IMG/VR virus record: IMGVR_UViG_3300030376_005405
Span: 1-38,945 of that record
Strand: one strand, 5' to 3'
Length of the DNA: 38,945 nucleotides
Source: a virus
Taxonomy: Duplodnaviria > Caudoviricetes
The notes below the pieces were generated by a model. It had not been told where the DNA came from, made no database searches, and saw only the letters and a list, made by a program, of their open reading frames with translations. Both the position numbers and the translations under genes were made by a program. Each line of letters starts with the position of its first letter. Position 1 is the first letter of the stretch. Below are positions 15,971 to 37,935 of the stretch, in pieces.

Positions 15971-16156
15971 ATGTCAAGTCTGTTTTTGTTTCTAGGATTT
16001 TTTGTTGTTTTGTTGTTATTTGGATTGCTGATAGACGCATATGCCGTCGATTTAGATGGTGTTGAAATCTTTGACAGCGACGAAGATTTTCAGGCAATGT
16101 TCTCTAACGGTCTTCGGGATTCTTGTCTGTCAGAAAGCCAAAGTCGTCAGAAGTAA
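15971..16156 (+). CDS. Small single-pass membrane protein
   Basis: N-terminal hydrophobic helix LFLFLGFFVVLLLFGLLI followed by an acidic tail; last gene of the + strand block. Confidence 0.5.
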   Translation: MSSLFLFLGFFVVLLLFGLLIDAYAVDLDGVEIFDSDEDFQAMFSNGLRDSCLSESQSRQK

Positions 16157-16805
16157 CACGGACCTTCTTATCCGTTCTTTCATCTCTAATTAAGAGCGAA
16201 CCGTCGTTACATTCCATATCCCACAAAATGCGTGTGATCAGGTTTGCTTCATTCAGGAGGTTCTTCATAACACCCGCTTTGTTCTCTTTTCGCCACATGG
16301 AAACTAATGTCAATGCTGATGTTATCAAAGATGGTAATGGTATCACAAACTTTCTGATGTCATTCATATGTGCTAATGCCACCAGTGGTATTCTTCTAGG
16401 ATATGACTCATAATGAGTTGCTGTCATCTCTTGGACCCATTCAAGTAAATCACAATATCGAAGGTCGCCTCGGAAGTCAACCTCAATTTTACTTCGTATC
16501 AAATCAAAGCCTAGCGACTTCATGTTATAGCCCGCAATTATTGATTGTGGTTCTAACTCCTCATACCACTTTGTAAATGCATCAAGGGTGCGTAATTCAA
16601 TTTTTTTCCTGCTGATCGAAAGAGAAAATATCTCATCAGTAAACAAAAGAAATCCTTCAGGGCCAAATACCGCAATTGCACTTAGGCTAATGTCGCTTGG
16701 CTTCTCCCAGCCCTTTGGTAAATCGCAAGGGTCGTCTTCTGAAAAGACCCTTATTCCATACAGTCGTCTTTCTTTTAACCAGTCGTCTATATTCTTTCTA
16801 AACAT
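16104..16805 (-). CDS. DnaQ/RNase H-like (DEDD, YprB/RNase_H_2-type) exonuclease homolog, probably inactive
   Basis: IIAGYNMKSLGFDLI (ExoII-like), YCDLLEWV and L..LA.MN are retained; the ExoI DxE and ExoIII YxxxD positions appear replaced (GIRV; NLLNEA). Confidence 0.55.
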   Translation of the reverse strand: MFRKNIDDWLKERRLYGIRVFSEDDPCDLPKGWEKPSDISLSAIAVFGPEGFLLFTDEIFSLSISRKKIELRTLDAFTKWYEELEPQSIIAGYNMKSLGFDLIRSKIEVDFRGDLRYCDLLEWVQEMTATHYESYPRRIPLVALAHMNDIRKFVIPLPSLITSALTLVSMWRKENKAGVMKNLLNEANLITRILWDMECNDGSLLIRDERTDKKVRVTSDDFGFLTDKNPEDR

Positions 16806-16806
16806 G

Positions 16807-18255
16807 TCACCAACTCAAGTGTATGAATGCTTTGCGGCCATCCATCAACCGTTCAGCCTGACTATTGGCAATCAACTTGTCAAGCCTTCTTTCAGCGGTT
16901 CTAGTGCTGACTCCTGCTTCGGAGGCATACCTCTTCTCAAGGTCCTTCTTAGCAACCACTTCTTTGCCGGACTTCTTGTGTGCAAACTTGCCACAGGCGT
17001 TGTATGATTTTTTCCATCCGTGCATCTCATTCTCTCTTCGCTTCTTTGCCTTGACATCCTGCTTTTGCTCTAACCAAATAATCAGGTTGTGCAGGTTGTC
17101 ATAGATGATTTCAGTTGCCATCATGATATGGTCAGCGGTAATCACTGATGTCTTCATAGTAGCGGCAATGATGTTAGCGAATATGATGGTATAATTCTCG
17201 ACATTCGGTATGAATGACATAGCCGTTTCCCTGATGATGTCATTGTTGATTCCCTTGATCAACGAGTAATAATCATCAACAGCATTCAACAAAGCGGCGT
17301 GGTAAGATGGACCTATCGAAAATATGTCATAGGAATATGCTATTGCTTTGTCCTCCTTCTCTCCTTCAGACAACGCATCCCATTCCTCCTCCGTAAGGCC
17401 CGCCGCCTTCAACAACCTGCCCTTAACTTCATTCGATATGTCTATGATGAAATCCGCTAAGTCGGAATACGACCACAATTTGTCAGGCACTGGAACATAT
17501 ACACCACCCATACGGTGTTCGCTAGTAGTCTGTCGCTGTTCAACGCCAACATCATTTTGAAATAGGAATACACGCTGAAAGAACCCTTTTTCCAACACAT
17601 GATTCATAATGTCCTTTGGAGGGTATGTGGTCATCCACAGGGACACGCCTGATGGTGTTCTGACCGAACCACCAACAAGGTGCTTTACCAGCACATTCGT
17701 TTCACTACCAATAGGGGCCATTGCCTGTTGGAGGTATAGAATCTTATCACTGAAGTATGCTTTCTGATCGTTTAGCAATACACTGGCTTCATCAAAAAGA
17801 AGCGTCTTATACCCATTCAACAAGCCGGGGACTGTAACATTCTCCTCACCTATTGGTTTACCATCGTCATCATACACAGCCTGTTGTTGAACGGTTCCAA
17901 TCATCTTTGCATCAGAACCGCCACTGAATGATTCAGTTTCGATACCGCATTCTTTCAAGAGTTTTGCAGTAAACTCGTATGCAATCGATTTACCAGTCCT
18001 TGACTGTTGAATCCAATATACATGCACCCTGCAATCAACATGAGAGCCGTGTATTGGTATTCTCATGTATGGTGCTAGCATTTGTCCAGCACAGAAGAAG
18101 TATGATAGCATACCGGCATATTCGTTGAAGAATGATACAGTATTGAAACGGCCAATGTAGTTACGAATGTATTTACTCCCATCAAAGTCTGATTTGATTA
18201 GGGTGTAATCATCCCATTTTCTTCCTCCTGCATCCGTAGTTGGTCTAAGTAGCAT
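16807..18255 (-). CDS. mcm: MCM-family AAA+ replicative helicase lacking the N-terminal domain
   Basis: VHVYWIQQSRTGKS (Walker A variant), S...KMIGTV, PGLL, LLFDEAS (Walker B), LQQAM, GFFQRVF (Arg finger), ITADHI..A and a C-terminal winged helix. Confidence 0.75.
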   Translation of the reverse strand: MLLRPTTDAGGRKWDDYTLIKSDFDGSKYIRNYIGRFNTVSFFNEYAGMLSYFFCAGQMLAPYMRIPIHGSHVDCRVHVYWIQQSRTGKSIAYEFTAKLLKECGIETESFSGGSDAKMIGTVQQQAVYDDDGKPIGEENVTVPGLLNGYKTLLFDEASVLLNDQKAYFSDKILYLQQAMAPIGSETNVLVKHLVGGSVRTPSGVSLWMTTYPPKDIMNHVLEKGFFQRVFLFQNDVGVEQRQTTSEHRMGGVYVPVPDKLWSYSDLADFIIDISNEVKGRLLKAAGLTEEEWDALSEGEKEDKAIAYSYDIFSIGPSYHAALLNAVDDYYSLIKGINNDIIRETAMSFIPNVENYTIIFANIIAATMKTSVITADHIMMATEIIYDNLHNLIIWLEQKQDVKAKKRRENEMHGWKKSYNACGKFAHKKSGKEVVAKKDLEKRYASEAGVSTRTAERRLDKLIANSQAERLMDGRKAFIHLSW

Positions 18256-18293
18256 GTTTTCACTTCCGGGGATTTAAGTGGATGTGTGTCAAG

Positions 18294-18308
18294 TATTTCA
18301 ACACTCAC
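18294..18308 (-). promoter_or_regulatory. Putative promoter (GTGAGTG-TTGAAATA), variant of the recurrent motif
   Basis: Overlaps the xpf stop, upstream of mcm; partial match to the GTGAGCC-TTGAAA motif. Confidence 0.45.
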
Positions 18309-19021
18309 GCCCTTGTCATCTTGACTTTTTCATTAGGAACGGCATCTTCACTATTCAATACAGTCAGAATCTTTTGCGCTCTAACTTTGCCGATGCCTTC
18401 CGATTTCATTAACTCTTTTGCATTCAATCCAGCGACTTCAGCAACCGAACCATGTTCCTCGATCAAACGCTCGGCGATAGCATGGCTACAACCAGCCGCT
18501 CTCAATACATCCATACGCATGTCTTCAGAATTGGTTTTTCTCATCACCCTATATGTCGATGATGAGCCGATAGTGTCATGCTTCTCAAATCGTTTACAGA
18601 TGAATCTAGCCGCTGATGAGCGGTCAGGGAATGTAACTATGGTTATATCGAAGTCTGTTGAGAATCTAGCCAATGAACCAATGAAGCCACCCCACGCTCT
18701 AGCAAAGGGAATCTTTCGACCACCCTTCTTTGCACTGGCGACATACTTGTCAACGGTTCCCCATACAAGCAATATAGCATGATTGTAATTGTCATCCATG
18801 TTTTGTAATTGGTGTTCTAAATGTCCACTGTAAAGGCTTTGCATGTAATCCTCCATAGATTTGGATTCAATGCCGACACTAGCAAAAGCATAGTCCGTGA
18901 TCAGGTTCTGTCGTGTCTGATACTTCAGCCCCTGCTTGTCGCAATACTTCTTTACAAGAGCCTCAAGACCGGACCGTTCACGATTGTCAATGAATAAGAC
19001 TTTTTCAGGCATCCTCGACAA
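18305..19021 (-). CDS. xpf: XPF/ERCC4 structure-specific endonuclease with C-terminal HhH2 domain
   Basis: LFIDNRE, TDY...GIESKSMEDYMQSL..GHL..QL (ERKxxxD variant) and HhH motifs (AERLIEEHGSV; EGIGKVRAQKI). Confidence 0.9.
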   Translation of the reverse strand: MSRMPEKVLFIDNRERSGLEALVKKYCDKQGLKYQTRQNLITDYAFASVGIESKSMEDYMQSLYSGHLEHQLQNMDDNYNHAILLVWGTVDKYVASAKKGGRKIPFARAWGGFIGSLARFSTDFDITIVTFPDRSSAARFICKRFEKHDTIGSSSTYRVMRKTNSEDMRMDVLRAAGCSHAIAERLIEEHGSVAEVAGLNAKELMKSEGIGKVRAQKILTVLNSEDAVPNEKVKMTRA

Positions 19022-19217
19022 CCTCCTGCGGGATGTCCTCCTCTTTCATAGGAGTCCAGCCGTATGCCTTCGCATAGCCGTTATACCATTCGACATAATG
19101 CTTGACACATAACCCATGAGTCCCTGAATCAGGGTGTGCTGGGCGTTTACAGTCAGGGGACTGACAGGTCCCCCACATAGCGGTCATATTGGAATCTGTT
19201 ACCATGAAGGCGGTCAT
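19005..19217 (-). CDS. Small zinc-finger protein (C3H)
   Basis: CQSPDC...LCVKHY; TAATG-coupled to the upstream gene. Confidence 0.6.
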   Translation of the reverse strand: MTAFMVTDSNMTAMWGTCQSPDCKRPAHPDSGTHGLCVKHYVEWYNGYAKAYGWTPMKEEDIPQEVVEDA

Positions 19218-19369
19218 TACTCCTCCTCCTCCTTCGCTTTCTTTTCAGCATACGCTTTACGCTTTTCAGGGGTCCAACCCTGCATACAAGATACGCATCT
19301 TCTGAAACCTGAACGGACATTGTTTTCGCATTCCTTGACACAGCACATGACCGACATGAAGCGGGCCAT
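19217..19369 (-). CDS. 50-aa zinc-finger microprotein (not in ORF track)
   Basis: Hand translation MARFMSVMCCVKECENNVRSGFRRCVSCMQGWTPEKRKAYAEKKAKEEEE; TAATG overlaps at both ends and GGAGG SD. Confidence 0.75.
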   Translation of the reverse strand: MARFMSVMCCVKECENNVRSGFRRCVSCMQGWTPEKRKAYAEKKAKEEEE

Positions 19370-19653
19370 TATACCTCCTCCTCTTCTTCTAAGGAGGCTA
19401 ACCTCTCCGCCTTCTTCTTTTCGTAATCATCATCATCTTCGACTTCAACAACTGGTTCCTCGACTGGTTGATTTGACCTCTTAGCCACTTCAGCCAGTGC
19501 TTCTTGGAATGCTGGGGTTCTATGAGTTTCTAATAAATCGATTACAAGCCTAGCAAAGTTTTGATCACCAGTAAAAGCCACTGGATTTTCATGCTGAAGA
19601 ATGACATACTGTATTTCGCCATTCGGGGTTTTCATAGCACGAGCGGACCACAT
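19369..19653 (-). CDS. Hypothetical protein with acidic C-terminus
   Basis: 94 aa; TAATG-coupled on both sides. Confidence 0.65.
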   Translation of the reverse strand: MWSARAMKTPNGEIQYVILQHENPVAFTGDQNFARLVIDLLETHRTPAFQEALAEVAKRSNQPVEEPVVEVEDDDDYEKKKAERLASLEEEEEV

Positions 19654-19769
19654 TACTTACCCCCCCTAACCCACATGCTGTGACATGTTTTACACATGTC
19701 AACGCCGTGTTTATTCTTCATCGTAGCCGTTCCTTCGCAATGGATTCCTCCAAACTTACATTTAGTCAT
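19653..19769 (-). CDS. 38-aa zinc-finger microprotein (not in ORF track)
   Basis: Hand translation MTKCKFGGIHCEGTATMKNKHGVDMCKTCHSMWVRGGK; ATG directly follows the primase stop and its own stop overlaps the next ATG. Confidence 0.7.
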   Translation of the reverse strand: MTKCKFGGIHCEGTATMKNKHGVDMCKTCHSMWVRGGK

Positions 19770-20879
19770 TTAATCAACTCCTTTTCCATCATAAAATGGA
19801 CATTTACCAACGCATAATCCTTCTCGGTATAATGTGGGGCAGGTCGGTGTCTGATATTGTCGTTCCGCCCCATGTTTGAGATATTTGTGGGTCACTTCAG
19901 GTTTGTAGTCCGCCCACTGTAATTTTGATATGAAAGCATGTGCCTGATTGATTCGTTCATCAATAGGTATCTTGCTATTGGATGGAGGCCGTGCGAAGCG
20001 GTTGAAGTAATCGAGGAGATACATCATAAGATATACCCTCGGCAGGTGCGGAGGATTTGCACCTAACTCGCAAGTTGCTTCGGCTAGACATGGTAGCATG
20101 GGTATGTTTCCAATACGCTTCATCTCTATCTCAACATCTTCAGCATTAAACTCCTGCTTCGCAAAGCCCCCTTGAGGACCAAATGGATTATTTGGGTCAC
20201 GCTCTATGACTTCAAGAGGCATTCCTCTTTCACCCATGATGCACATACCCAAATTAGAAGGCTCTCTCGCTCTTTTATTTATGATGTCCCAGCCTTCTGA
20301 TATTCCACCTAGATACAAAGGAATCGACCATATATTGCGTTTGAAGTTGAATGAATTAGGAATGCGAATATGACGGTCAGGTCTGAATGATACCACTGGG
20401 TCTAATGTCTTCAAGTCCATGTCCCTAACCCACTTTGAAATCAAAGCCCTGCCTGATACAAGCAGGTCATTCAACTCCTTTGGGTTAAGGACATACTCTT
20501 GATCGAGATTGACCCATATATGAAAACCGCCGCCTGTAAACCAAACAGCGTGCCTCCATCCATTAGTCAATAGATGAGCGGACAAACGCCACGCCTCTTC
20601 AGAACATTGCTGTCCTGCTTCGTCATCATCCATACCGTTAGCAACGAGTCTATCCTTGTCTAAGTCAACAACGAAGTGGGGGACCACCGCAGTATTGTAT
20701 TCACAACGGTTTCCTTTTGTTTTCAAATCTCTAAAACCATAGACAGTAGTAGTTATGTTATCTTTACCATTGGTGGCTGAAACATACTTCTGTAACTGTT
20801 CCTCATTCTTTACAACCCTGCGGGTCCTCATACAGACCTCACGAGGAAAATGGCGAAACATGGAACCCATTGGGATCAC
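19770..20879 (-). CDS. priS: Archaeo-eukaryotic primase, fused PriS (catalytic) - PriL (Fe-S-type C-terminal domain)
   Basis: AEP motifs VVDLD, FTGGGFHIW and D..RHIRIPNSFN; C-terminal MLPCL...TPTCPTL..EGLCVGKC is the PriL-CTD Cys pattern. Confidence 0.88.
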   Translation of the reverse strand: MIPMGSMFRHFPREVCMRTRRVVKNEEQLQKYVSATNGKDNITTTVYGFRDLKTKGNRCEYNTAVVPHFVVDLDKDRLVANGMDDDEAGQQCSEEAWRLSAHLLTNGWRHAVWFTGGGFHIWVNLDQEYVLNPKELNDLLVSGRALISKWVRDMDLKTLDPVVSFRPDRHIRIPNSFNFKRNIWSIPLYLGGISEGWDIINKRAREPSNLGMCIMGERGMPLEVIERDPNNPFGPQGGFAKQEFNAEDVEIEMKRIGNIPMLPCLAEATCELGANPPHLPRVYLMMYLLDYFNRFARPPSNSKIPIDERINQAHAFISKLQWADYKPEVTHKYLKHGAERQYQTPTCPTLYREGLCVGKCPFYDGKGVD

Positions 20880-21349
20880 TTCTTCTTCTTCTTGGCTGTT
20901 TTACCGACCATTCTATCATCACGCTTTTTGACAGGGCATGTTCTAGCATTATGGCCTCTTTTACCACAATAACCGCACTTTACGGAATAGCCCTTTCTGC
21001 CGTTTGTCTTTCGCTTTCGGGTCTTTCTCGTGACAGTCTTCTTTTTACTAGGTTCGTATCTCCTGACATCAATCTTTGTATATGGTGGGTCGGTTGAGAA
21101 AGGACTCTCAATGATAGAAGTCTTTTCAGGGTCATTGTGTAAGTAATCACCGATTTTTTTGAAGTTTCTATTAGGGCTATTTTGAATGATGTCATCCAAT
21201 TGGTTCCTAACCTTCTCTAGTAATTCTTCTCTTTTCGCAGATGCTTTATGCATCCCCGACGCTTTTTCTATATCCTTTATCATCACAGCAAAGTGATGGG
21301 GGATTTCCTTTATTTCAACAGTCCATTGCTTATCCTTAGTATCGCTCAC
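20876..21349 (-). CDS. Basic protein with CCHC zinc knuckle
   Basis: CGYCGKRGHNARTC flanked by K/R-rich stretches. Confidence 0.7.
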   Translation of the reverse strand: MSDTKDKQWTVEIKEIPHHFAVMIKDIEKASGMHKASAKREELLEKVRNQLDDIIQNSPNRNFKKIGDYLHNDPEKTSIIESPFSTDPPYTKIDVRRYEPSKKKTVTRKTRKRKTNGRKGYSVKCGYCGKRGHNARTCPVKKRDDRMVGKTAKKKKK

Positions 21350-22389
21350 GCTTCCAACTCCTTTTTCATGTCATGGGGCATCAAAACCCTCCCGTATTTG
21401 GGGCAAAAGCCCTTGACCGCACACCAAGGCTCGCACAATCTAGTGGTTGCGAAGCCATTTGGTTTTACAGGGAACATCCAACCGTTGTTGTCCCCTGTAT
21501 ATCTCAAGTGCATTCTGATCAGGGACTTTAGGTCCCTTAGCACTTCTTGAATAGCATCTGTTCGGACATTCTCAATAAAGCGATATATCTCTTTGCCTTG
21601 TGTATCGCCCTTTGTGTGGTCCCAGCCCCAATAAGCCGCTGTTTTGCCACTAAACTTGTGTCCTTTGGATTTGCGAAGCAAATAGACATAGAATGCCATC
21701 TCCTTACGCATTGATTCTAATTTGTAATCACTGTGTTTCCATAACCCAGTCTTCAACTCATGGATATGCAAATTGCCATTGGCATCCATGAACGCCCTGT
21801 CGATGATTCCCGTCAGGTGAACCATTACCACTTTGCCATCGACTTCAATATCAACGATGGCGTTGATTTCATCTTCATTGATTACCGGCAGGAAGTTTTC
21901 CTTATCAGATGAAAGGAACCTGTTGGTTTCGATCATCATCATACGCTCTAAGTGTTCATGCTCTCCGAGTTTATATGGGCTAGAAGGCGTTACAACACCC
22001 TTGTATTCCTTTTCTTTGCTACAAGAGGGTATGAACCCTTTGAAGTATGTGTAAAGGTCACTAGGCTTATCCCTTAACTTATCAGCATAGTCCAAGTCAA
22101 CAGCGTTGTAAAAGTCCTCTATTGCATCGTGGACATTGGTCCCTCTCCGCATGTTGTCGTTTTCAACCTCTTTGACCCCTAGTATATATTTGATGAAATA
22201 CTGTTGTTCACAGAATTGGAATGTATTCACCGATGATTTGCTTACACGCAATAAATGTTCAGGGAGTTTCCCATCAATAAGGTGGTATCCATAACTAGAA
22301 TCCAACCCTTTGCCGACCTCATCAGGTATAGGGTGAATGCCCGGTGGCTTGACCCCTTTGATTCCTGATGCGGATGGTTGATTGCTCAT
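21346..22389 (-). CDS. Cas4/AddB-like PD-(D/E)XK exonuclease with Fe-S cysteines
   Basis: SKSS...FCEQQY, GTNVHDAIE, GIIDR, IHELKTG, EMAFY and C-terminal C..WC.....C. Confidence 0.85.
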   Translation of the reverse strand: MSNQPSASGIKGVKPPGIHPIPDEVGKGLDSSYGYHLIDGKLPEHLLRVSKSSVNTFQFCEQQYFIKYILGVKEVENDNMRRGTNVHDAIEDFYNAVDLDYADKLRDKPSDLYTYFKGFIPSCSKEKEYKGVVTPSSPYKLGEHEHLERMMMIETNRFLSSDKENFLPVINEDEINAIVDIEVDGKVVMVHLTGIIDRAFMDANGNLHIHELKTGLWKHSDYKLESMRKEMAFYVYLLRKSKGHKFSGKTAAYWGWDHTKGDTQGKEIYRFIENVRTDAIQEVLRDLKSLIRMHLRYTGDNNGWMFPVKPNGFATTRLCEPWCAVKGFCPKYGRVLMPHDMKKELEA

Positions 22390-22670
22390 TCATACACCTC
22401 GTCTATTTCATGATCAACGAACATATTAATAACCGCTTTTTTGGCCTTCTCAATATCGTTCAATGACAACTCCTCAACAGGTCCACCGTAATCGACAATA
22501 TGTTTTGTCATGTGATACAACTTTTTGAATTGCTGTGCCTGATAAGCGAGGAATGCTTGGGGTGAATCTAAAACCACTTTACGGTTCAATGCGTCATCGA
22601 AATACCATGTGCGACCATTGCCGGTAGCCCATTCGGTTTCTTTGTTTACAATTCCTGCCATATTTACCAC
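22386..22670 (-). CDS. Hypothetical protein
   Basis: 94 aa; abuts the upstream stop and overlaps the downstream start (ATGA). Confidence 0.6.
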   Translation of the reverse strand: MVNMAGIVNKETEWATGNGRTWYFDDALNRKVVLDSPQAFLAYQAQQFKKLYHMTKHIVDYGGPVEELSLNDIEKAKKAVINMFVDHEIDEVYE

Positions 22671-23846
22671 CTAGAAACCAACCATGTCTTGCGGGTTATC
22701 AAATGTCCCATCACGCAATCCGGGCCATCCAAACCATTGAGGCTCGTCAGGGTCACGGATGAATAATAGAACAGGTTGTCCACACTTGAGGCTAGTCCTG
22801 TTCTCAACAACAGTAGCAATTGATCGAGTCTGATTTGTCAACTCTCCCTTCTCATTGCGCTGTTCCTCGACACGGACATGTATCAGTTGCTGGAAATCAC
22901 CCTCGCTACGAGGCAGGATGTCAGGGACATCAGAACCTAGTATCTCATTGCCATTGCTGTCGTATGACGGCTTCATGTGGGTGATTACATAGCAATGCAC
23001 GCCCAGTCTAGCAGTTTCCTGAAGACCGTGCGGTAATGCCGCCCTATATCGGTTCTTACGAATCTCCCAATTGAATCGGCCAATCTTGGTGGTGGTCTTC
23101 TGACCAGTAGTAGCAATACCGTCACGGCCCAAATCAAGGTCATACACCTTCATCAATGTGCCACAGATGTTCAGCCATTGATCAGCACCGTCAAACACTA
23201 GGGTCTTCAGATACGGGTTCGGCATACGGCCATGCTCAACAAAGTATGCCGCTTGTTTTACGGCGACTTCGTGAGCGTGGTTTAGAATATCCAACACACG
23301 CTGGTATGTTGCTTGGAAATCATATGGGACACGACTTTGGTTCTGAACCATAACCCAAGGGCTAATGACAACAATGTTATCCTTCTTATCAGAATGGTGA
23401 GCCGCCTTAGTGGTATCTCCTCCTAAGTCGAAGTCAACATGCCATATTTCAGCACCACCCTCTATCTCCTCCTTCGTGAGGCTGTCTAGGACCATTCCAG
23501 TCTTACCGCTCTTGGCAGGGCCAGCAATCATAGCCAATACGCAAACTGGCGTATATTGAGCCATGATTCTAGCATCACGAACAATCATCGAACCGGGGGA
23601 ACCCCAATCAGTAGTGACAACTGGTGCTTGTGGCTTTTGAGGGGCCACTGTTTTAGCAACAGGCATCTCACTAACAACCTCCTCAATGACAGTATCCATT
23701 GAAGGGGGGTTCGTGTTCTTAACCGGAGTATTATTCGCAACTTCAGAAGTTGATGGCAGTTGATCGAATGCAGGCTTCTTCATATCAGAAGGGTCCTTAG
23801 TCGTATCAACTATCGCTACACTATCAAAAAATCCTGTTCCGCTCAT
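22671..23846 (-). CDS. RecA-fold ATPase (AAA_24/Sak4-like single-strand annealing recombinase)
   Basis: Walker A IAGPAKSGKT, HVDFDLG, Walker B TLVFDG, VITH; low-complexity N-terminus; lies between an SSB-like gene and a Cas4-like nuclease. Confidence 0.75.
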   Translation of the reverse strand: MSGTGFFDSVAIVDTTKDPSDMKKPAFDQLPSTSEVANNTPVKNTNPPSMDTVIEEVVSEMPVAKTVAPQKPQAPVVTTDWGSPGSMIVRDARIMAQYTPVCVLAMIAGPAKSGKTGMVLDSLTKEEIEGGAEIWHVDFDLGGDTTKAAHHSDKKDNIVVISPWVMVQNQSRVPYDFQATYQRVLDILNHAHEVAVKQAAYFVEHGRMPNPYLKTLVFDGADQWLNICGTLMKVYDLDLGRDGIATTGQKTTTKIGRFNWEIRKNRYRAALPHGLQETARLGVHCYVITHMKPSYDSNGNEILGSDVPDILPRSEGDFQQLIHVRVEEQRNEKGELTNQTRSIATVVENRTSLKCGQPVLLFIRDPDEPQWFGWPGLRDGTFDNPQDMVGF

Positions 23847-24172
23847 TCTAAAACCTCCACTTGTCCAACTTCGACCTTCAATGTGTGTGCAGGAGTCAAG
23901 CCTTCAGGGAATAGTTTGTCCAATGGGTCATGAGTTTCACAAGCGTTTAGGCTGAATGCCAAACCGCATAGAATCTCAATAGGCATCATGTCCCTGCCAA
24001 TTTCTTCAGTGAACACTTTGCCCGTTCTCTTGATAACACTGTTTAGGAATGTAGTCAATTCTTCGTCAACGATGTCCGCAACGGTGTCGCCCCACATGAG
24101 TCCTTCTTTGAGGCCTTCAGCCCCAAAAGCGATACCTCCTGTTTTGAGGTCTAAAGGCCACCAGCCCATCAA
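23843..24172 (-). CDS. Hypothetical protein
   Basis: 109 aa with overlapping start/stop junctions on both sides. Confidence 0.6.
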   Translation of the reverse strand: MMGWWPLDLKTGGIAFGAEGLKEGLMWGDTVADIVDEELTTFLNSVIKRTGKVFTEEIGRDMMPIEILCGLAFSLNACETHDPLDKLFPEGLTPAHTLKVEVGQVEVLE

Positions 24173-25491
24173 GCACCACCACTGAAGTCATTGAGTCCCG
24201 ATAGGTCACTGGTGACAGCATCAGGCTCTTGGGCGACAATAGAACGCATTGGCATAGCGTGAACGCTCATACCGTCTAGTGACATGTTACGGGAACCGTC
24301 AGTTGCATTCCATGTTCGTGATCGAACAACAATCCATACTCTTGAACCACGAGCATACGGTTTCCAGCCATCAGACTTGAGGACCTTCAATGCTTGGTGC
24401 TTCTCGACTAGGTATCTTGTAACTTCAACCCATAGACTTGCATCAGGGTTGTCACGGCGAAGGCTGTTACTACTGATAGTCAATGAATGCTTGAATCCAC
24501 CTTCGATGAAGGATGGTGCTTCTTTACCATCGTAATCAATGTAATCGACAACGCCGGAAATAGCAAATGTCGGACCGTATTCTTTGCCGTTAGGAGATGT
24601 AGTAGCATTAGCGTCGTGATACTCCCAAAGGTCATTGAGGTCAACTACTGGCATGAATTGAGCCATAAACTGGTCAGGCTTGAAGATGGCACTGGCTTTG
24701 TCCATTTGCTCATCAGGAACCCAATCGAGGTCATAGGAAGCAACCATGTTACCTGTCCTCAAGATAGTTTCTTCAGGGTTTGGCCAGCCCTTTGCTTCTT
24801 CAGCCTTGAAACGAATAGGCTTGTGCATCATCAAATCCATTTCAGCGGATTCAAAGGAACACTCTAGTGTTCGTGGAGGCAGTGGACCTTCAGTTAGGAA
24901 TGAATCTTTCTTGTTGCCGATAAATACCCATTCTCGCTTTGCCATGAATGCAGGTTTTGGATACTTTCTGCCATCTTTCTGTGCAATCATACCAATGTGC
25001 ATTTGACCACCATTGATCGGTATAACCCAACGAGGAGTTTTTCCTTCAGCCTTTTCAGAATGCACCTGTTTGTCATCAGCATCGACTAGAACCCAGTCGC
25101 CGCCATCATTAAGATATGCTCGACCAATAGGCACAGAATTGCCATTATACTGGATACCATATCGGAGAGTTTGAGGCAAGTTTGCTTCAGCACTTTCAGT
25201 GGCTAGTGTTCGCTGGCGTTCCATAGTATCTCTTCGGCCATTGTATGCTACAATCATGCCAACCCATTCATCGCCTTTGCCACCACTGCCGGTGCGCCTG
25301 TTCATACTAACATCGAAGGATGCAGAAAAGAAGTCTAAGTCATCGGCATCTAGGCCATCTAACTTCTGTCCATTCTGTGTCCATACTTCGGGGAATGAAT
25401 CCTTTACGAAGGTGCTGAATTGCTCAACCAACTCTTCGTCTGACCATCCTTTTGCTGTTCCAATTCTCTTCAGTGTATCATTTATTTGCAT
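24169..25491 (-). CDS. Putative single-stranded DNA-binding protein (RPA/OB-fold-like)
   Basis: 440 aa, beta-rich. The C-terminal part (FAISGVVDYI...YARGSRVWIVVRSRTW...SLDGMSVHA) looks OB-fold; acidic tail; recombination context. Confidence 0.55.
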   Translation of the reverse strand: MQINDTLKRIGTAKGWSDEELVEQFSTFVKDSFPEVWTQNGQKLDGLDADDLDFFSASFDVSMNRRTGSGGKGDEWVGMIVAYNGRRDTMERQRTLATESAEANLPQTLRYGIQYNGNSVPIGRAYLNDGGDWVLVDADDKQVHSEKAEGKTPRWVIPINGGQMHIGMIAQKDGRKYPKPAFMAKREWVFIGNKKDSFLTEGPLPPRTLECSFESAEMDLMMHKPIRFKAEEAKGWPNPEETILRTGNMVASYDLDWVPDEQMDKASAIFKPDQFMAQFMPVVDLNDLWEYHDANATTSPNGKEYGPTFAISGVVDYIDYDGKEAPSFIEGGFKHSLTISSNSLRRDNPDASLWVEVTRYLVEKHQALKVLKSDGWKPYARGSRVWIVVRSRTWNATDGSRNMSLDGMSVHAMPMRSIVAQEPDAVTSDLSGLNDFSGGA

Positions 25492-26082: not shown

Positions 26083-27522
26083 TCATCCAGTCTGTTCTTC
26101 CCCGTCATTCCCATCCATCCCTGTAATCATCTCAATTTCTTCGACTCCGATACAGTCCTTTATGCCCGCTTCAGCCATGACAGAAACTACCCTGCCATGA
26201 ACATACGGTCCGTAATCACCCCAGCCTGAAGCATTTACTTCGACCTCCACGAAAACCGGAGATTCTATTGTAAACTCATCATTAAGAAGTTTTGAATGAT
26301 TAGGAATCATTGACTTCAGGCGTTTTGCCACTTCGGGCGTTGCCTCGATCAATCCCACTGGGTAGTATGTATTGCCATCTCTAGCCCCTATCCTCCATTT
26401 GCCTAGAAGAGGGGCCTGACTACCATGTATTGACTGAACCCATTTGCCACTAACGACTCTAAAGATTGGGTTACGCTTTGCTTTGCCGCTCAACACAATC
26501 ATCTCGTAATGTGTGTTCTCATATGTGTGAACACCCCCCGCATTCCATAGTATGACGGCCCTATCTTTTGATAGATGTTGGCTAGCATCTGTCGGGTCTT
26601 TGAGTTTGATTGTATTCTTTAATGCCCACTTTGGCAATGTCTTCTGCAACTGTAACCTGCGTTGCTGATATGTCATCTCCGCTGTCGAAAGCAAATCACA
26701 CACTACTAACTGTCGGCCTCTATGAGATGCATATTCAACGAGATATATGCCAATAGGAAAACCGCTGTATAACTCATAAGTGTCATCCATTTCAACTTCA
26801 GAACCTGATGAATCAAACAGTTTAGAGAACCCCTCCGCTACATGTAATGTCATCCATTCGCCTTCAGGATACTCCATGTAACAATCCGTAAACTTGACTT
26901 CGCTAGGAGAGTCCACATATGTTGGTGACGGTATAACAAGTCCAATGCCGCATTTAGGTTCAATCAAAGGATGCAGGTCGCTTCCTTGAGATAATACGAA
27001 ACAGGTCCTTTCAAGACCAACGAGATATGATGCACGCTTGATCTGATAGAACAATTCACCATTGGCCCATGCTAATGCGGCGATGATATGCCGCCTCCTG
27101 ACAATACCCGCCCTGACGCTCATCCGCATCAATAGAGGATGCATGTCCCTTGAACACAATCTAGTGAACAATGGAACCATCAACTTAGCCCTGTCTTCAT
27201 TGTCATTGCATTCCAATACAGATTTCAGTATGCTAACCACACGGCCTGCATTCATAGTAGTGGATTCTGTTTGCGATAATTGTGAAATCAAATGGATTGG
27301 GTCAGGGTCATCATCGACCTCATCACAATGAGCATCAGTCAAATGAAAGAATATCTCCCTGAAGTCTTCATCAGATAAACGGGTATTGCTTTCAGGTGAA
27401 TAGAAGTAATACACCACCATGTATTGATTTGACTTATTGCCACTCAAACAGTTAGCAATAACCCGTTCAGGCTTCATCGATGTCATTACACGACTTGATT
27501 CGGCTAATGACCTAAACGACAT
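26083..27522 (-). CDS. ATP-dependent DNA ligase homolog, apparently catalytically inactive
   Basis: Ligase architecture: helical DNA-binding domain, nucleotidyltransferase core (MEYPEGEWMTLH, VVCDLL, YQQRR..L) and OB domain (FRVVSG.W...LGKWRIGARDG..YYPVG; VFVEV). Motif I has no Lys. Confidence 0.75.
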   Translation of the reverse strand: MSFRSLAESSRVMTSMKPERVIANCLSGNKSNQYMVVYYFYSPESNTRLSDEDFREIFFHLTDAHCDEVDDDPDPIHLISQLSQTESTTMNAGRVVSILKSVLECNDNEDRAKLMVPLFTRLCSRDMHPLLMRMSVRAGIVRRRHIIAALAWANGELFYQIKRASYLVGLERTCFVLSQGSDLHPLIEPKCGIGLVIPSPTYVDSPSEVKFTDCYMEYPEGEWMTLHVAEGFSKLFDSSGSEVEMDDTYELYSGFPIGIYLVEYASHRGRQLVVCDLLSTAEMTYQQRRLQLQKTLPKWALKNTIKLKDPTDASQHLSKDRAVILWNAGGVHTYENTHYEMIVLSGKAKRNPIFRVVSGKWVQSIHGSQAPLLGKWRIGARDGNTYYPVGLIEATPEVAKRLKSMIPNHSKLLNDEFTIESPVFVEVEVNASGWGDYGPYVHGRVVSVMAEAGIKDCIGVEEIEMITGMDGNDGEEQTG

Positions 27523-27524
27523 AT

Positions 27525-27540
27525 CTGAATATGTATTCAG
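27525..27540. promoter_or_regulatory. 16-bp palindrome (possible operator)
   Basis: CTGAATA-TG-TATTCAG fills the gap between the TFB-like stop and the ligase-like start. Confidence 0.35.
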
Positions 27541-27983
27541 GAATCTCCCTCCTCCTTTGAAGAGGGATACTCGGAGAGCAATGTGTTCAATGCGTCTTCA
27601 TCAGGCAGGACTTCAAGGATGACCGGATGGACCCACTTTGTTTCCACCCATCGTGTCCCCTCTCTCCTAGAATCTTTCAACATAGCACGCACCCTGAATC
27701 CAGTTACCTTCTTCGCTACATCGGCTAGCGAATTGATTGACCTTCTGTTGCCAGTCATATGTGCGACTACATAGATACAATCGCATAACAAACGAATAGG
27801 CGTTCTAGGGACACGCATGAGAAGCCTAGACCATAATTCAAATGATAGGATGGAAATGTCATGTGGCAACTTTAGTTTCTCACATATCTCTTCGGCCTTT
27901 TTCATATGAATGTCTTCAAAGTCTTCTTTACTATTCAATCGGAACAACTCCTTCTGTATCCTGATCATCCCATAGGTCATCAT
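27537..27983 (-). CDS. TFIIB/TFB-like single cyclin-fold protein
   Basis: EEICEKLKLPHDI...ELW...RTPIRLLCDCIYVVAHMTGNRRSINSLADV matches the TFB core repeat (C..L.Lp..i...A..iY.a.r..g.prsl.eia). The start may be ATG 27905. Confidence 0.65.
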   Translation of the reverse strand: MMTYGMIRIQKELFRLNSKEDFEDIHMKKAEEICEKLKLPHDISILSFELWSRLLMRVPRTPIRLLCDCIYVVAHMTGNRRSINSLADVAKKVTGFRVRAMLKDSRREGTRWVETKWVHPVILEVLPDEDALNTLLSEYPSSKEEGDS

Positions 27984-28236
27984 TAGCCAATGCTTCAGTC
28001 AAATGAGAATGCAATAGTTGAACCTCCTCCTTCGTGAGCATAACGCCCTGCTTAGTGTAACCAGTGTGTCCTGAAAAGTTAGGAACAATCCGGTATAACC
28101 TGATATTCATTATTCTAGTATTGAACCCTTTAGAGGTCATAGTGTGTATCTCCATGCCCATGTGACACCTAGCGTCAATTTTCCCGATTATCCTTGAGTC
28201 TAGGTGACTCCAATCGGTGGGCTTTGATTTACTCAC
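27931..28236 (-). CDS. PC4/Sub1-like (YdbC-like) ssDNA-binding transcription cofactor
   Basis: RIMNIRLY...GYTKQGVMLTKEEVQLL matches the PC4 pattern DIR.y...P.kKGI.L..ee...L. Confidence 0.7.
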   Translation of the reverse strand: MSKSKPTDWSHLDSRIIGKIDARCHMGMEIHTMTSKGFNTRIMNIRLYRIVPNFSGHTGYTKQGVMLTKEEVQLLHSHLTEALANDDLWDDQDTEGVVPIE

Positions 28237-28799
28237 TCTTCCTCCTCCTCTTCCGAGTTAGATGCAACAATTGCATCCTCCGCTAAACTCTTTTCAAACA
28301 ACTTCTTTTGCTTGATGTCGTATGCGGTTGAATCAACAACTACATGCAAACCACGCATGTCCTCGTCAACGGCTTCAATTTCACCACATAGGGGACATTG
28401 ACCCTCATCACTAATGCGGATATACTGGATTCCTGCCACTAACTCCTCGACTCTCAAGATTGCACCGCACCTCGCCTGACATAACGACACATTGCCGACA
28501 TCATCAGGATTGATTCGTATCTGTTGATTTTCCTCATCATAGGCCTCTTGTATCTGTTCAATTACATTCCATTGTAGTAACTCACCTAGGGCGACTATCC
28601 AGTCATGCCTATCAAACACCGATTGCCCAAATGCATCATCAGATGGTTTGCTATTGTGGATAATGCCTAACGCTAAGACATTCTGATCAACACGAACATA
28701 AACTCCAACATCCGGTAATGTCCATGTGCCTCCAATTGCTAAACCGTTCCATAGGCGATATGCCCATTCAATATCTTTCTGTGTTGGTTCAGGAATCAT
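28233..28799 (-). CDS. Hypothetical protein with zinc ribbon
   Basis: Start reassigned to ATG 28799 (SD GGAGGTG); CQARC...CPLC; acidic tail. Confidence 0.65.
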   Translation of the reverse strand: MIPEPTQKDIEWAYRLWNGLAIGGTWTLPDVGVYVRVDQNVLALGIIHNSKPSDDAFGQSVFDRHDWIVALGELLQWNVIEQIQEAYDEENQQIRINPDDVGNVSLCQARCGAILRVEELVAGIQYIRISDEGQCPLCGEIEAVDEDMRGLHVVVDSTAYDIKQKKLFEKSLAEDAIVASNSEEEEEE

Positions 28800-28950
28800 G
28801 GAACATCCACCTCCTGCATTGAGGGCATCTAACAACTGTTCTGACTTTGCGGTTGACTATATCCATTTTCTCACCATCTAGTAACATGTAATCGTTTGAA
28901 CAGTCGGGGCATTGAATCTTCACCTTTACGACTTTTTCAGGTTCAGCCAT
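28789..28950 (-). CDS. 53-aa zinc-ribbon microprotein (not in ORF track)
   Basis: Hand translation MAEPEKVVKVKIQCPDCSNDYMLLDGEKMDIVNRKVRTVVRCPQCRRWMFHDS; TAATG-coupled with SD GAGGT. Confidence 0.75.
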   Translation of the reverse strand: MAEPEKVVKVKIQCPDCSNDYMLLDGEKMDIVNRKVRTVVRCPQCRRWMFHDS

Positions 28951-29252
28951 TAGACCTCACCCAATTCTTCATCAGTCATCCGTCTAATCTTACGGGTTTT
29001 GAATATGTTGCGAAGTCCGCCCTGAACCATATCTCTTTCGTGAAGATAATGTTTTATCCATCCCTTCGCTGTTTTAATTGCGTCGTCAATGGCATCAAGT
29101 GCCTTGACTCTTTCAACGCCAGTCATTTCGCTATACTGTGCGTTACCTAGAAGCATTCCTCTATCCACTCTTAACTCGGTAATTATCTCATTCCATGCGG
29201 ATACGGCCATTCTATATCTTCTCTCGGCAACGAGTCCATTCCAATCTGACAT
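28950..29252 (-). CDS. Hypothetical helical protein, probably leaderless
   Basis: ATG 29252 (MSDWNG...) lies at the same distance from the promoter motif as the thermosome ATG; the track's TTG start falls inside the TATA box. Confidence 0.65.
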   Translation of the reverse strand: MSDWNGLVAERRYRMAVSAWNEIITELRVDRGMLLGNAQYSEMTGVERVKALDAIDDAIKTAKGWIKHYLHERDMVQGGLRNIFKTRKIRRMTDEELGEV

Positions 29253-29274
29253 AGCGAGGGCTATGGGGGTCTGC

Positions 29275-29289
29275 CTTTTCAAGGCTCAC
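29275..29289 (-). promoter_or_regulatory. Putative promoter GTGAGCC-TTGAAAAG
   Basis: Recurrent motif; 22 nt from the end of the box to ATG 29252. Confidence 0.7.
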
Positions 29290-29666
29290 ACCTTCATATC
29301 TTCGCCTGATGCCATTGTAGTTGATCGGGATGCTAGAGTTGCACGCCTAGCGTAATACCAACGCCAGCCCGGACTTTCAGGGCCAATGAAATACACATTG
29401 TCATCAGGTTCAATAGCGGGCATAACCCACTCAATTATCTCTTCAAGCGGAATCGTGGGGGTATATTCAACCTCCATTGTCCGGCCTTGATGTTTAACCA
29501 AAACAACACCCATGAAACCGGGGTCATTCAACCTTACACATGCTTCTCCATATACCAAAGCACCTGATGAATCGAACAGATATGAGGGGACACAATCTCC
29601 CTCATAATATGTCACGCCATCCAGCGGGTTTACCCAGCCTGTATCTTCAGGGTTGGTCATTCCCAA
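29286..29666 (-). CDS. Hypothetical protein
   Basis: 126-aa ORF in the tightly packed - strand operon; the start may be the second Met. Confidence 0.6.
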   Translation of the reverse strand: MGMTNPEDTGWVNPLDGVTYYEGDCVPSYLFDSSGALVYGEACVRLNDPGFMGVVLVKHQGRTMEVEYTPTIPLEEIIEWVMPAIEPDDNVYFIGPESPGWRWYYARRATLASRSTTMASGEDMKV

Positions 29667-30301
29667 TCCTCCAATTGATGTGCCGGGAAAGTTTTGCTAG
29701 AGTCTAGCCGTATTCCTCCTTCGGAGTCGTCAGGATTAGCACCACAGGCTTCGCACGGATGTGTTCCATCCAATGGGTCATCATCATGCTTCAATCGTGG
29801 ATGACCGCACCAGTTGCACGAGGGTCCATCCCACAATACATTAGCGGTCATGTCATAATCACCGTCATCTCCTCTCTTTGTGAAGTGCTTATCTAGGTCA
29901 ACTTCCTTTCTTGTAATCGGTATAACCTCCCAGTTGTTGTCTTCTAAACTGGCGATAAAATCAAGACATTCTTCAGGCTCAATTGCCATTGAAGACATAG
30001 GACTAATTGCCATGTCATAGATGACCCAACCTCTCCTGCCATCAGCAGTGATTACAGCCATCCCTCTTTTGTCTAGTATCTCGTTAGGCAGGTCGATGTA
30101 TGGCAATAGTGCAAATGGTGCTTTGTAATTCCATAGAGTAATCGATGAATGTTCTTCAGGGACTTCGATCCAATCAGGCCCTGTTTCCTCCAATATCTCC
30201 TCAATGGGAGTATCTTCGTCAATAACTATGATTGCACCGGCCCACTGTCGTAATACAACAAACATGGGCAATGCTGGTGCTTTTGGCATACCAACTGTCA
30301 C
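29657..30301 (-). CDS. Hypothetical acidic protein with C-terminal Cys/His cluster
   Basis: CNWCGH...H...HPCEAC; SD GGAGG upstream. Confidence 0.6.
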   Translation of the reverse strand: MTVGMPKAPALPMFVVLRQWAGAIIVIDEDTPIEEILEETGPDWIEVPEEHSSITLWNYKAPFALLPYIDLPNEILDKRGMAVITADGRRGWVIYDMAISPMSSMAIEPEECLDFIASLEDNNWEVIPITRKEVDLDKHFTKRGDDGDYDMTANVLWDGPSCNWCGHPRLKHDDDPLDGTHPCEACGANPDDSEGGIRLDSSKTFPAHQLEDWE

Positions 30302-30303
30302 AC

Positions 30304-30600
30304 TTAGACCTCCATTGTCATCAACTGTTCAGCGGCCATCTTTGCAGGCCCTGATATAATAATTGGATTATCATCCGCATCGCTTCTAGCAATCTCCCAT
30401 CGTGTCGTCTTAATCAATATACGGCCTTCAGGGGTGTCGGCATACCTGTTTGCGGGGGTCATCTTCATCCACGAAGGTGGGAAACCCAATACAGATACAG
30501 CGGCACGCCATACTAGAGATGAATGCTGACGGCTCTTTGGCCTATTCTTTGGAGTCCAAATGGTGGTGGAAGGGCCACGACCACGCCTAGTCTTTGACAT
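30304..30600 (-). CDS. Hypothetical basic protein
   Basis: 98 aa with SD-like GGGGGT upstream. Confidence 0.6.
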   Translation of the reverse strand: MSKTRRGRGPSTTIWTPKNRPKSRQHSSLVWRAAVSVLGFPPSWMKMTPANRYADTPEGRILIKTTRWEIARSDADDNPIIISGPAKMAAEQLMTMEV

Positions 30601-30898: not shown

Positions 30899-30900
30899 GA

Positions 30901-34236: not shown

Positions 34237-34269
34237 CTAATGACCCTCGTGGGGCTAGTCCGAGCGTGG

Positions 34270-34293
34270 CGGTCAGGGTATTTAATGGCTCAC
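34270..34293 (-). promoter_or_regulatory. Putative promoter GTGAGCCA-TTAAATAC-CCTGACCG
   Basis: Canonical TATA-like TTAAATA preceded by the shared GTGAGCC and followed by GACC. Confidence 0.7.
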
Positions 34294-35354: not shown

Positions 35355-35392
35355 TCTCCTGTGGGCTTCATGGTCCCACTAATCTATACTAG

Positions 35393-35418: not shown

Positions 35419-35439
35419 CGCCTAATCGTGCCACTGCGA

Positions 35440-36064: not shown

Positions 36065-36301
36065 TCATTCCAAGGGGTGTTCAATGTCTTTATCCCCCAG
36101 CACCCAACGAAGTGTCTTAACCACTCCTTCTAACGCTTTGAAATTACGAGCATGATACATTCGCTTTTTTTTGGGTGATGACTTGATAGCACAGGCCGAC
36201 GCATGTTGGTTCTGAACCTTCTCGGCCTTGTCCAACATTTCCTCAATTTCGACCCAACTTCTCTCGTATGTAAAATCACCAGCGACTGGCATAGCAATCA
36301 C
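36065..36301 (-). CDS. Small helical hypothetical protein coupled to the thermosome gene
   Basis: 78 aa; ATGA overlap with the chaperonin stop; ends KALEGVVKTLRWVLGD. Confidence 0.7.
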   Translation of the reverse strand: MIAMPVAGDFTYERSWVEIEEMLDKAEKVQNQHASACAIKSSPKKKRMYHARNFKALEGVVKTLRWVLGDKDIEHPLE

Positions 36302-37935
36302 ATCATTGGGCCGGGTGGCCCCGCTTGACGCATTTGGATTACATCATCGATACGAAGAATCATAGTCGCTGTTTCAGTAGCACTAGATACCGCCTGCCTT
36401 ACTACACTCATTGGTTCAATGACACCGTGATCAAGCATGTTGTCGATTAGTATATCCACATCATCATCAGTGACATAAACACCGTGACAGTGCTGACCAT
36501 GTCCATGTGCTTTCCTAAGAGCAATGATTGTATCAACTGGGTCCATCCCAGCGTTTTCAGCAATAGTTGCAGGAATCTCCTCTAATGCAGTAGCATATGC
36601 CTCAACTGCCATCTGTTTACGGCCAGCCACTGTGGATGCAAACTCTCTCAAGTCCTTAGCCATTCTAGCAAATGTAGCACCGCCGCCAACTAGAACCTGT
36701 GACTCGTTAATGACTAGAGATACTACTCCAAGGGCATCATCAAATGCTCTCTCAATCTCCTCAACAATGTGACTGGTTCCACCACGCAACACAACTGTGA
36801 CCGCTTTACCGTCAGTGGACACGCCACCGATAGATGTCACGATGTTCTCTCCTAGTCGTTCCTCCATTGCATAACCGGCACTGCCTAAGTCCTCACTGGT
36901 CAGGTCGTCTAGGTCACTAATTACTTTAGCACCAGTTGCCTTTGACACTGACGATAGTTGTGACTTGCGACAGGATTGTAATGCCATGATGCCAGCCTTA
37001 GCCATGTAATGTAATGCTAAGTCGTCAATCTTCTTCTGACATAACACAACATTCACCTTTGCATCAACAAACTTGTTGACCATATCCTTCAAGGCCTTCT
37101 CTTCTTGGTCAAGGAAGTCTTGCATTTGGTCAGGGCTAGTGATACTGATTCTAGCATCGACTTCAGTCTTCTTTACTTCGATAGGAAAATCGATCAATGC
37201 AATGATTGCGCCATCAACTGCTGTCGGCATACCATTGTGAGCCTTCTCTTTTTCTAGGACAATTCCGTCGAGTAAATATGAGTCTTCGACACTGCCACCA
37301 GTCGCACATACAACATTGATGTCGTCTAGGTTTGGTGGCGTTATACCGTCTGACAAAGACTCAACAGCATCGCCAGCAATAGTCGCAATGACATTCTTAA
37401 CGCTCTCGTGAGTATCTGTAAACTTGCCAGTCAATGCTGTTTCAGCACAAGCCATAGCAATTGAACGATAGCCCTCGCCGATATGCTTCTTCAGTTTGTT
37501 GCTTGGGACAGCACATTGCTCTAGGGTTTCTAAAGCCTTAGAAGATGCTAGCCTATATCCTGATGCAATCACAGTCGGATGCACATTCTTTTCGATCAGT
37601 GCTTCGCTCTCCTTGAGTAAAGCACCAGCAAATACAACCGATGTAGTAGTCCCGTCATAACACTGTGACTCTTGAGTCTTCGACACTTCGATAACCATCT
37701 TTGCCGCTGGATGTTCAACATTGATTTCCCGCAGGATAGTAGCACCGTCATTTGTAATCAGGACATCGCCCAAACCATTGACTAGCATCTTGTCCATCCC
37801 CTTTGGACCGAGAGTCGATTTGACAGCGTCAGCAACCGCTTTTGCGGCGGCTATGTTGTTACCCTGTGCGCTTTTTCCTCTCGTTCTATCTGTTCCTTCA
37901 GGCATTATGAAAATAGGCTGTCCATGCGGTTGCAT
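36298..37935 (-). CDS. thsA: Thermosome subunit (group II chaperonin)
   Basis: [61 protein letters not shown]. Confidence 0.97.

Follow-up and report, generated by a model that had tools for sequence, protein, structure and literature searches.

A strongly conserved magrovirus protein keeps the three-domain DNA ligase fold, lacks the adenylated lysine and lies in a four-gene cassette at the head of the replication operon

Why would a virus keep a full-length DNA ligase that appears unable to ligate? The question is raised by a 479-residue open reading frame in a 38,945-base virus record (the whole stretch analysed, hereafter the window), which contains no N bases and is laid out in two arms, the structural genes on the plus strand and the replication genes on the minus strand. 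The original prediction held that this frame is intact, that its catalytic motifs are eroded and that the ligase scaffold has been retained for a new role. Positions of the features discussed are collected in Table 1.

Table 1. Features of the window, with the observations on which each assignment rests.
Feature	Position	Strand	Remarks
Pseudo-ligase ORF, 479 aa	26083..27522	-	three-domain ATP-dependent DNA ligase fold without motif I Lys
Helical DNA-binding domain, ~residues 1-190	26953..27522	-	VIA matches to Lig1/LigIV DNA-binding domain (8b8t, 7d9k)
Nucleotidyltransferase-fold domain, ~residues 191-348, shortened, catalytically eroded	26479..26952	-	model and alignment
OB-fold domain, ~residues 349-466	26125..26478	-	model and alignment
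Motif I remnant, E217-Y-P-E-G-E-W-M-T-L-H227	26842..26874	-	canonical E-x-K-x-D-G-x-R-x-x-x-H
K302, sole invariant Lys of the close family	26617..26619	-	aligns to the strand after the 'eRR' helix, outside motif I
TFB-like gene, one cyclin repeat only	27537..27983	-	PF00382 E 0.006; family profile to archaeal TFB 1d3u E 4e-5
Conserved ~98-aa 'PC4-like' gene	27931..28236	-	in 62/69 loci
Single LAGLIDADG-fold protein, conserved part ~125 aa	25555..26052	-	directly downstream of the pseudo-ligase gene; model pLDDT 90.5
Remaining replication operon: SSB-like, RadA-like, PD-(D/E)XK exonuclease, primase, ERCC4 nuclease, MCM-like, DnaQ-like	16104..25491	-
Thermosome subunit	36298..37935	-	PF00118 E 7e-158; marker of magrovirus groups A/D in the accessible text of PMC5434244

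The thermosome, primase and nuclease genes and the genome layout match those of magroviruses, and we therefore assigned the window to these viruses of Poseidoniales. It is group A-like in having the thermosome gene, opposed replication and structural arms and a link to Poseidoniales; a 39%-identical homolog of the pseudo-ligase was found in a Poseidoniales genome assembly, on a contig of 106 kb, and is the sole match in 401 Poseidoniales genomes. An annotated phage collection held no match to the gene. A sigma-70 promoter scan of the window stayed at chance level, the consensus being ill-suited to an archaeal host. Elsewhere in the window, the structural arm ends in a 453-residue ORF without a Pfam match (14588-15949, plus strand), whose segments ADLFSAVGG, GPCEGWS and FIENP we take to be methyltransferase-like, and the closest complete relative carries a 3528-residue ORF just upstream of its thermosome gene (L073:8284-18867; G001 27284-37867).

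An AlphaFold2 model of the protein, built from 23 homologs (mean pLDDT 82), consisted of a helical N-terminal domain followed by a nucleotidyltransferase domain and an OB domain. Foldseek ranked the P. furiosus ligase 2cfm first (E 1.9e-20) among 117 matches at E <= 0.001 in which archaeal three-domain ligases led, VIA returned Z scores of 16-17 for the top ligases (LigIV, A. fulgidus, LigIII and S. solfataricus), and searches of BFVD and the ESM Atlas likewise yielded three-domain viral ligases. The frame, the model and the structure searches thus bear out an intact protein with the three domains of a ligase. The BFVD matches to the ligase fold include several nudivirus proteins (GrBNV gp37-like, HzNV-1 Orf134). 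The 479-residue sequence by itself gave no ligase signal in Pfam (0 families), in PHROGs or in the PDB searched by phmmer and HMM, and a wide profile search reached one true KLDGYR ligase at E 4.6e-4. A profile of active ligases was built from Thermoplasmatota genomes and aligned to the profile of the pseudo-ligase family, which gave a probability of 93.9% and E 1.6e-7, with local runs of 447-459 columns.

Domain order and fold are those of the archaeal and eukaryotic three-domain ATP ligases (P. furiosus 2cfm, T. gammatolerans, S. solfataricus 2hiv, human Lig1/3/4), with which the protein also shares the G and H of motif I, the IIIa Asp and the 'eRR' helix. It differs from them in lacking the motif I Lys and motifs IV-VI, in being ~80-100 residues shorter than the archaeal enzymes, in its low identity to them (12-16%) and in matching no Pfam family. 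The DNA-binding domain has conserved RLSDEDFRE and LT-x(4)-EE segments and many invariant or near-invariant arginines (R11, R55, R111, R133, R143); the QxxLF PCNA-binding loop of archaeal ligases was not seen at the aligned place. In the catalytic domain G221, H227, D276, R288 and K302 are invariant in 90/90 relatives, and the median net charge is -10 against -3 in active ligases. The OB domain has lost the GTGF and RFPRF/RxDK segments of active ligases, GTGF and RFPRF being presumably the segments that grip DNA in those enzymes, and has acquired a new conserved hairpin, GWGDYGxY.

The lysine of motif I is indispensable for ligation. Motif I of the window protein had been read as EYPEGEW with the adenylated lysine missing, and this reading was confirmed by the string itself, by alignment and by the relatives. 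The Thermoplasmatota profile alignment sets EYP-EGEWMTLH on EYKYDGLRxQAH, with the lysine position at P219 or at a one-residue deletion; in the longer alignment CYMEYP-EGEWMTLH falls on CAFEYKYDGLRIQAH of the active-ligase profile, so the adenylated lysine has been replaced or deleted. In the close family, for which 90 different sequences of full length were compared (most of them 28-73% identical to the window protein), positions 215-222 contain no lysine in 89/90, and the one exception (homolog P0009) reads K-P-E-G at motif I but has neither E217 nor the motif I Arg. Retention of KxDG by relatives was sought and is not the rule in this family or in a distant lineage described below. The predicted loss of the motif I arginine held for the window protein, which has W223 there, but not for the family: 38/90 sequences keep it, among them the whole branch that carries PolB, and it is absent in some clades only. 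Residues 223 and 326 are never both Arg in the 90 sequences; an Arg/aromatic swap between them was considered as co-evolution and rejected, since each position changes only 3 times on the tree.

Motifs III-V, where hhalign was unreliable, were mapped by eye, motif IV on model strand 322-327. The strings said to mark their erosion (GIYLVEY, RAVILWN and EMIVLS) occur as quoted, and motifs IV and V are indeed lost, but the acid of motif III is kept: it corresponds, by eye, to E263, which is E or D in 90/90, although the preceding DG is gone. Motif IIIa keeps D276 without its aromatic neighbour, the preceding Phe being V, I, C or L in 76/76. Motif IV (E-G-h-h-h-K) reads RAVILW, with W/R/H/Y at the lysine position in 33/33/17/7 of the 90 sequences, and motifs V (WxKxK) and VI (RxDK) are replaced by YEMIVL and YVHGRVVSVMAE; the motif IV Glu and both motif V lysines are absent. 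Judged from these sequences, the protein is predicted, with high confidence, to be unable to ligate for want of the adenylated lysine, and we refer to it as a pseudo-ligase.

We next consider whether this gene is decaying. From 24 close pairs picked by hand, 18 were usable (dS between 0.05 and 1.5) and gave a median dN/dS of 0.047, spread evenly over the three domains (0.048, 0.047 and 0.054). Comparison values were 0.034 for the primase, 0.056 for the SSB-like gene and 0.114 for the gene downstream of the pseudo-ligase. The alignment of homologs and the dN/dS analysis proposed earlier therefore both point to strong purifying selection. The gene was present in 47/47 loci covering its slot, out of 108 loci examined; 46 of these had been fetched by PolB or primase and one by the pseudo-ligase gene, and some contigs recur. 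Homologs are all of full three-domain length, with no fusion among 33 matches in 1.84 billion proteins. In an independent sequencing run a related strain was ~94% identical without indels, and 36/40 of the differences shown fell at third codon positions. Together with the median of 0.047, this indel-free strain rules out recent decay or an assembly error. The gene thus encodes an old and highly conserved descendant of an ATP-dependent DNA ligase of the archaeal three-domain type, and its retention under strong purifying selection supports a new role.

A scan for the clamp loader reached viruses whose replication genes are distant from those of the window's lineage. Their order is PC4-like, TFB-like, a 460-residue gene, LAGLIDADG-like, loader, SSB-like, RadA-like, clamp and PolB, and the 460-residue protein is homologous to the pseudo-ligase over its full length (hhalign 97.6%, E 2.6e-12) at ~17% identity; an example of its motif reads YDLVEGARVFVH. 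This second lineage comprises 15 loci, some of them near-identical, and the one pair that could be compared had a dN/dS of 0.083. None of its 11 long ORFs has the motif I Lys. As both lineages lack this residue, inactivation of the ligase is likely to predate their split. Among seven aligned members no Lys column of the catalytic domain is invariant, the invariant ones lying elsewhere in the protein. A relocated lysine had been named as an outcome that would count against the original prediction; that K302 is not matched by an invariant Lys in this domain of the second lineage argues against it as a relocated nucleophile, although the alignment around K302 is uncertain.

What surrounds the gene is nearly as constant as the gene itself. 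PC4-like, TFB-like, pseudo-ligase and LAGLIDADG-fold genes form, in that order, a cassette at the head of the replication operon, and across 69 sources the neighbours were the ~125-residue gene in 67 and the SSB-like gene in 66 on the downstream side, and the TFB-like gene in 63 and the PC4-like gene in 62 on the upstream side. The pseudo-ligase had been placed directly downstream of both the PC4-like and the TFB-like gene, which is correct for the TFB-like gene (14-bp gap); the PC4-like gene sits one gene further upstream. Within 150 bp of the pseudo-ligase, the first lineage has the TFB-like gene in 47/63 loci and the LAGLIDADG-fold gene in 62/67. In the second lineage the two are directly upstream (14/14 covered loci) and directly downstream (11/11), with ends that touch or overlap, and a PC4-like gene was detected in 13/14 (E 1e-5 to 7e-3). 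The label 'PC4-like' is our assumption from a sequence motif and the original prediction, and a PDB search with this protein gave no significant match. DNA methyltransferase genes are inserted directly beside the pseudo-ligase gene in loci L009-L011, L034, L044, L045 and L061, and in several loci they separate it from the TFB-like gene.

The downstream neighbour matched I-Vdi141I in VIA (Z 8.3, rmsd 5.2, 121 residues aligned; Foldseek E 3e-3), and its top 16 VIA rows were all LAGLIDADG or WhiA folds, while the ESM Atlas offered no usable match. By eye, its catalytic acid position holds Arg in the window's lineage and Glu in the second, which suggests that this core LAGLIDADG-fold gene encodes a domesticated DNA binder like WhiA. 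A complex prediction for the pseudo-ligase with this neighbour scored 0.00 and was counted neither way.

The pseudo-ligase gene runs in the same direction as the SSB-like, exonuclease, primase and helicase-like genes. Within the operon, Pfam backs the assignments of the exonuclease and the ERCC4 nuclease and gives weak support to that of the primase; the SSB, RadA, MCM and DnaQ labels are assumed from the gene list of Philosof 2017 and from sequence motifs, and PDB searches with the SSB-, RadA- and MCM-like proteins found no match. No PolB, clamp or clamp loader was found in the window's replication operon. The family in fact has two branches. PolB, a clamp-like gene, a clamp loader and one more gene are present in the first, whereas the second, which is larger and includes the window, has none of the four. 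PF00136 was detected in 3/10 genomes carrying the pseudo-ligase and was absent from two rated 100% complete. The fourth gene, of ~190 residues, lies beside the clamp loader in the PolB-bearing branch only (L049:11710-12282 and 11 other loci) and was lost with PolB, clamp and loader. The PolB-less clade (window 16104-38900; G001, G002, G003, G006-G009) keeps primase, helicase-like and SSB-like genes. Other magrovirus groups have PolB, clamp and loader in the published accounts available to us, so loss is the simpler direction on a tree that has no outgroup root. The accessible text of Philosof 2017 (PMC5434244) states that 'all 26 genomes encode DNAP', unlike this clade, and a figure legend in Nishimura 2017, as far as that source was accessible, implies that some genomes lack PolB. 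Both the pseudo-ligase and its cassette persist in viruses that lack PolB, clamp and clamp loader. A polymerase subunit of the poxvirus A20 type is therefore excluded, and a dedicated PolB processivity factor is disfavoured.

We also examined which ligases are available to these viruses. An NAD-dependent ligase was found in 60/61 Poseidoniales genomes (G011-G071), and an ATP-dependent ligase domain in 0/61 and 1/401, compared with 74/121 in a sample of the phylum. The single match is a 2020-residue protein on a virus-like contig. That contig (L262-L268; G492:C65, 128 kb), where the thermosome gene adjoins the 2020-residue protein, is mostly unlike group A magroviruses, and the ligase-like domain has no match to KxDGxR. 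Poseidoniales thus appear to rely on an NAD-dependent ligase of bacterial type in place of the ATP-dependent enzyme of archaea, a point that we did not find stated in the papers searched. Since no ATP-dependent ligase was found in the hosts searched, the viral gene would be a relic of an enzyme absent from those present hosts. Among related viruses, PF01068 was above the cut-off in 0/10 genomes (81-100% complete) and in 0/2 more, leaving no intact ligase detected there. Three weak PF01068 matches all fell in a ~1150-residue head-module protein beside the capsid genes.

This head-module domain, the 'structural module ligase' of Philosof 2017, occurs in the same viruses (L119:2191-5652, equivalent to G001 94746-98207, and 19 other copies). 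Like the pseudo-ligase it has a nucleotidyltransferase fold, a P-[EK]-G remnant of motif I and eroded motifs III-V, and unlike it, it is one domain of a much larger protein. Its 20 aligned copies have K, M or R at the motif I Lys position and lack the motif III Glu, the motif IV Glu and the motif V lysines, so that it, too, looks dead from its sequence. The two are probably separate acquisitions: paralogy between the head-module domain and the pseudo-ligase is not supported, their profiles giving no significant match (E 0.085-0.11).

The accessible text of Philosof 2017 (PMC5434244) gives group A two ligases, one per module, calls the replicative one a 'thermostable ligase' and treats the ATP-dependent ligase as part of a nearly complete replisome. 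The replication block of the PolB-bearing relatives contains no ligase-like gene other than the pseudo-ligase, which is therefore probably this 'thermostable ligase'. The string 'inactiv' has 0 occurrences in the searchable main text, supplements and preprint of that study, whose figure-only Fig. S1 could carry such a label. Inactivation is likewise unreported in the accessible text of PMC5434244 and its preprint, PMC10160649, PMC11706807, PMC5332604, PMC8651126 and PMC7544198, and in the full text of PMC12999244 and PMC10768690; figure-only or supplementary material such as Prabhu Table S13 could carry an 'inactive' label.

The closest precedent is poxvirus A20/A22 (bioRxiv 10.1101/2022.11.22.517515; PMC11142717), described in the accessible parts of these sources as likewise a viral inactivated ligase with a non-enzymatic role in replication; the A20 structure 8wpf_B appeared in the VIA fold search with Z 8.9. 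According to the same parts, A20 derives from an NAD-dependent ligase, of which it retains the catalytic and OB subdomains alone, and it links PolB to UDG. The magrovirus protein shares the inactivated ligase fold, whereas it is of the ATP type rather than of NAD-ligase origin, has all three domains and persists without a viral PolB, with which it co-occurs in 3/10 genomes. It belongs neither to the active ligases nor to the A20 family.

The proposal that the ligase scaffold has been kept for a new role is thus supported by the presence of the fold, the loss of KxDG, the lack of an invariant match to K302 in the catalytic domain of the second lineage and the purifying selection. One form of it, a decoy that blocks the host ligase, is disfavoured as mimicry, the host ligase being NAD-dependent. 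We favour, with moderate confidence, a non-catalytic scaffold on the replication side with a putative DNA grip. A retained grip is the best explanation for the preservation of all three DNA-encircling domains and of the arginines of the DNA-binding domain, and the operon position together with the A20 precedent points to replication. Like those of active ligases, the three domains would still encircle duplex or nicked DNA, and the pseudo-ligase would hold partners there, either the small cassette proteins or the viral helicase, primase or SSB, leaving nicks for the host NAD-dependent ligase. Loss of the DNA-gripping OB segments (GTGF, RFPRF) and the acidic catalytic domain weigh against a DNA grip, while the nearest and least variable neighbours have a flavour of transcription (TFB-like, LAGLIDADG/WhiA-like), which weighs against a role in replication. 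The gene is kept in viruses that have a clamp of their own and in viruses that have none, so it is tied to no known replisome part. The gene order around it may simply be inherited; group B magroviruses with an active ligase were sought for comparison of neighbours, and only unrelated phages or haloviruses were found.

Those neighbours raise a possible, though less probable, alternative in which the pseudo-ligase works with the TFB-like, PC4-like and LAGLIDADG-fold proteins as a transcription module that redirects the host RNA polymerase, possibly by sensing nicks on replicating DNA and so switching on late genes. T4-like replication-coupled transcription is a model for such a nick-sensed late-gene switch. 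The same four-gene order recurs in two lineages whose pseudo-ligases are ~17% identical, with the TFB-like gene upstream in 14/14 and the LAGLIDADG gene downstream in 11/11 in the second and both within 150 bp in most loci of the first (47/63 and 62/67); the cassette has outlived PolB, clamp and loader, and the fold search with the LAGLIDADG neighbour returned WhiA among its matches. This support consists of adjacency alone, interrupted by methyltransferase genes in several loci, and the PC4 and LAGLIDADG folds would fit replication equally well, as binders of single-stranded DNA or of the origin. We know of no transcription factor derived from a ligase.

It is unlikely that the pseudo-ligase is instead a protein-protein linker without DNA contact, a rigid three-domain bridge such as the A20 ligase domain mostly is. 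The acidic catalytic domain, the lost DNA-contact motifs of the OB domain, the new conserved surfaces (the GWGDYG hairpin and RLSDEDFRE) and, as far as the accessible sources describe it, the A20 precedent would all fit such a bridge. A20, however, lost the N-terminal ligase parts, whereas here three domains of full length are under equal selection, and the obvious partner, viral PolB, is missing in 7/10 genomes.

Ligase folds bind nicks, and the host depends on one NAD-dependent ligase, so that a shield over nicks or ends, protecting viral DNA or blocking host repair, could be imagined. We consider this improbable: none of the 12 viral genomes or records examined yielded an intact ligase, so that the host enzyme is probably needed by the virus and blocking it would bring little gain, there is no homologous ATP-dependent host enzyme to mimic (1/401), and the slow, uniform evolution and core status are unlike those of an arms-race gene. 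Least probable is an enzyme with changed chemistry, whether through a relocated lysine (K302), lysine-free nucleotidyl transfer or de-adenylation. Some residues favour it (K302 invariant in 90/90; E217, E/D263, H227, D276 and R288 kept; K-P-E-G in P0009). Against it, K302 aligns outside motif I without an invariant counterpart in the second lineage, the adenine-stacking Phe has gone together with motif VI, the Glu of motif IV and the two lysines of motif V, P0009 lacks E217 and the Arg, and the residues kept are also structural in this fold; the state of the nucleotide pocket is here judged from alignment and from known ligase structures.

Beyond the favoured DNA scaffold, a broader and distinctly tentative proposal is that the cassette is a control machine built by the virus from disarmed or truncated DNA-handling folds. 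The pseudo-ligase would clamp nicks in viral DNA under replication and, through the one-repeat TFB and the LAGLIDADG saddle, direct the host RNA polymerase or replisome to the genome of the virus, and the machine would be so central that it outlived the viral polymerase, clamp and loader, in a virus that has no working ligase of its own and relies on the host NAD ligase.

With poxvirus A20 as the first, the pseudo-ligase is the second example, of independent origin, of a dead ligase retained among the core genes of a virus. In contrast to A20, none of its three DNA-encircling domains has been lost, and it offers a natural example of a ligase scaffold without catalysis. The hosts of magroviruses rank among the most abundant archaea in surface ocean waters, and the viruses have been described as having a nearly complete replisome that includes one or two ATP-dependent ligases. 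As both 'ligases' of the group look dead, as a large clade is without PolB, clamp and loader, and as the host order uses an NAD-dependent ligase, the published model of magrovirus replication needs revision.
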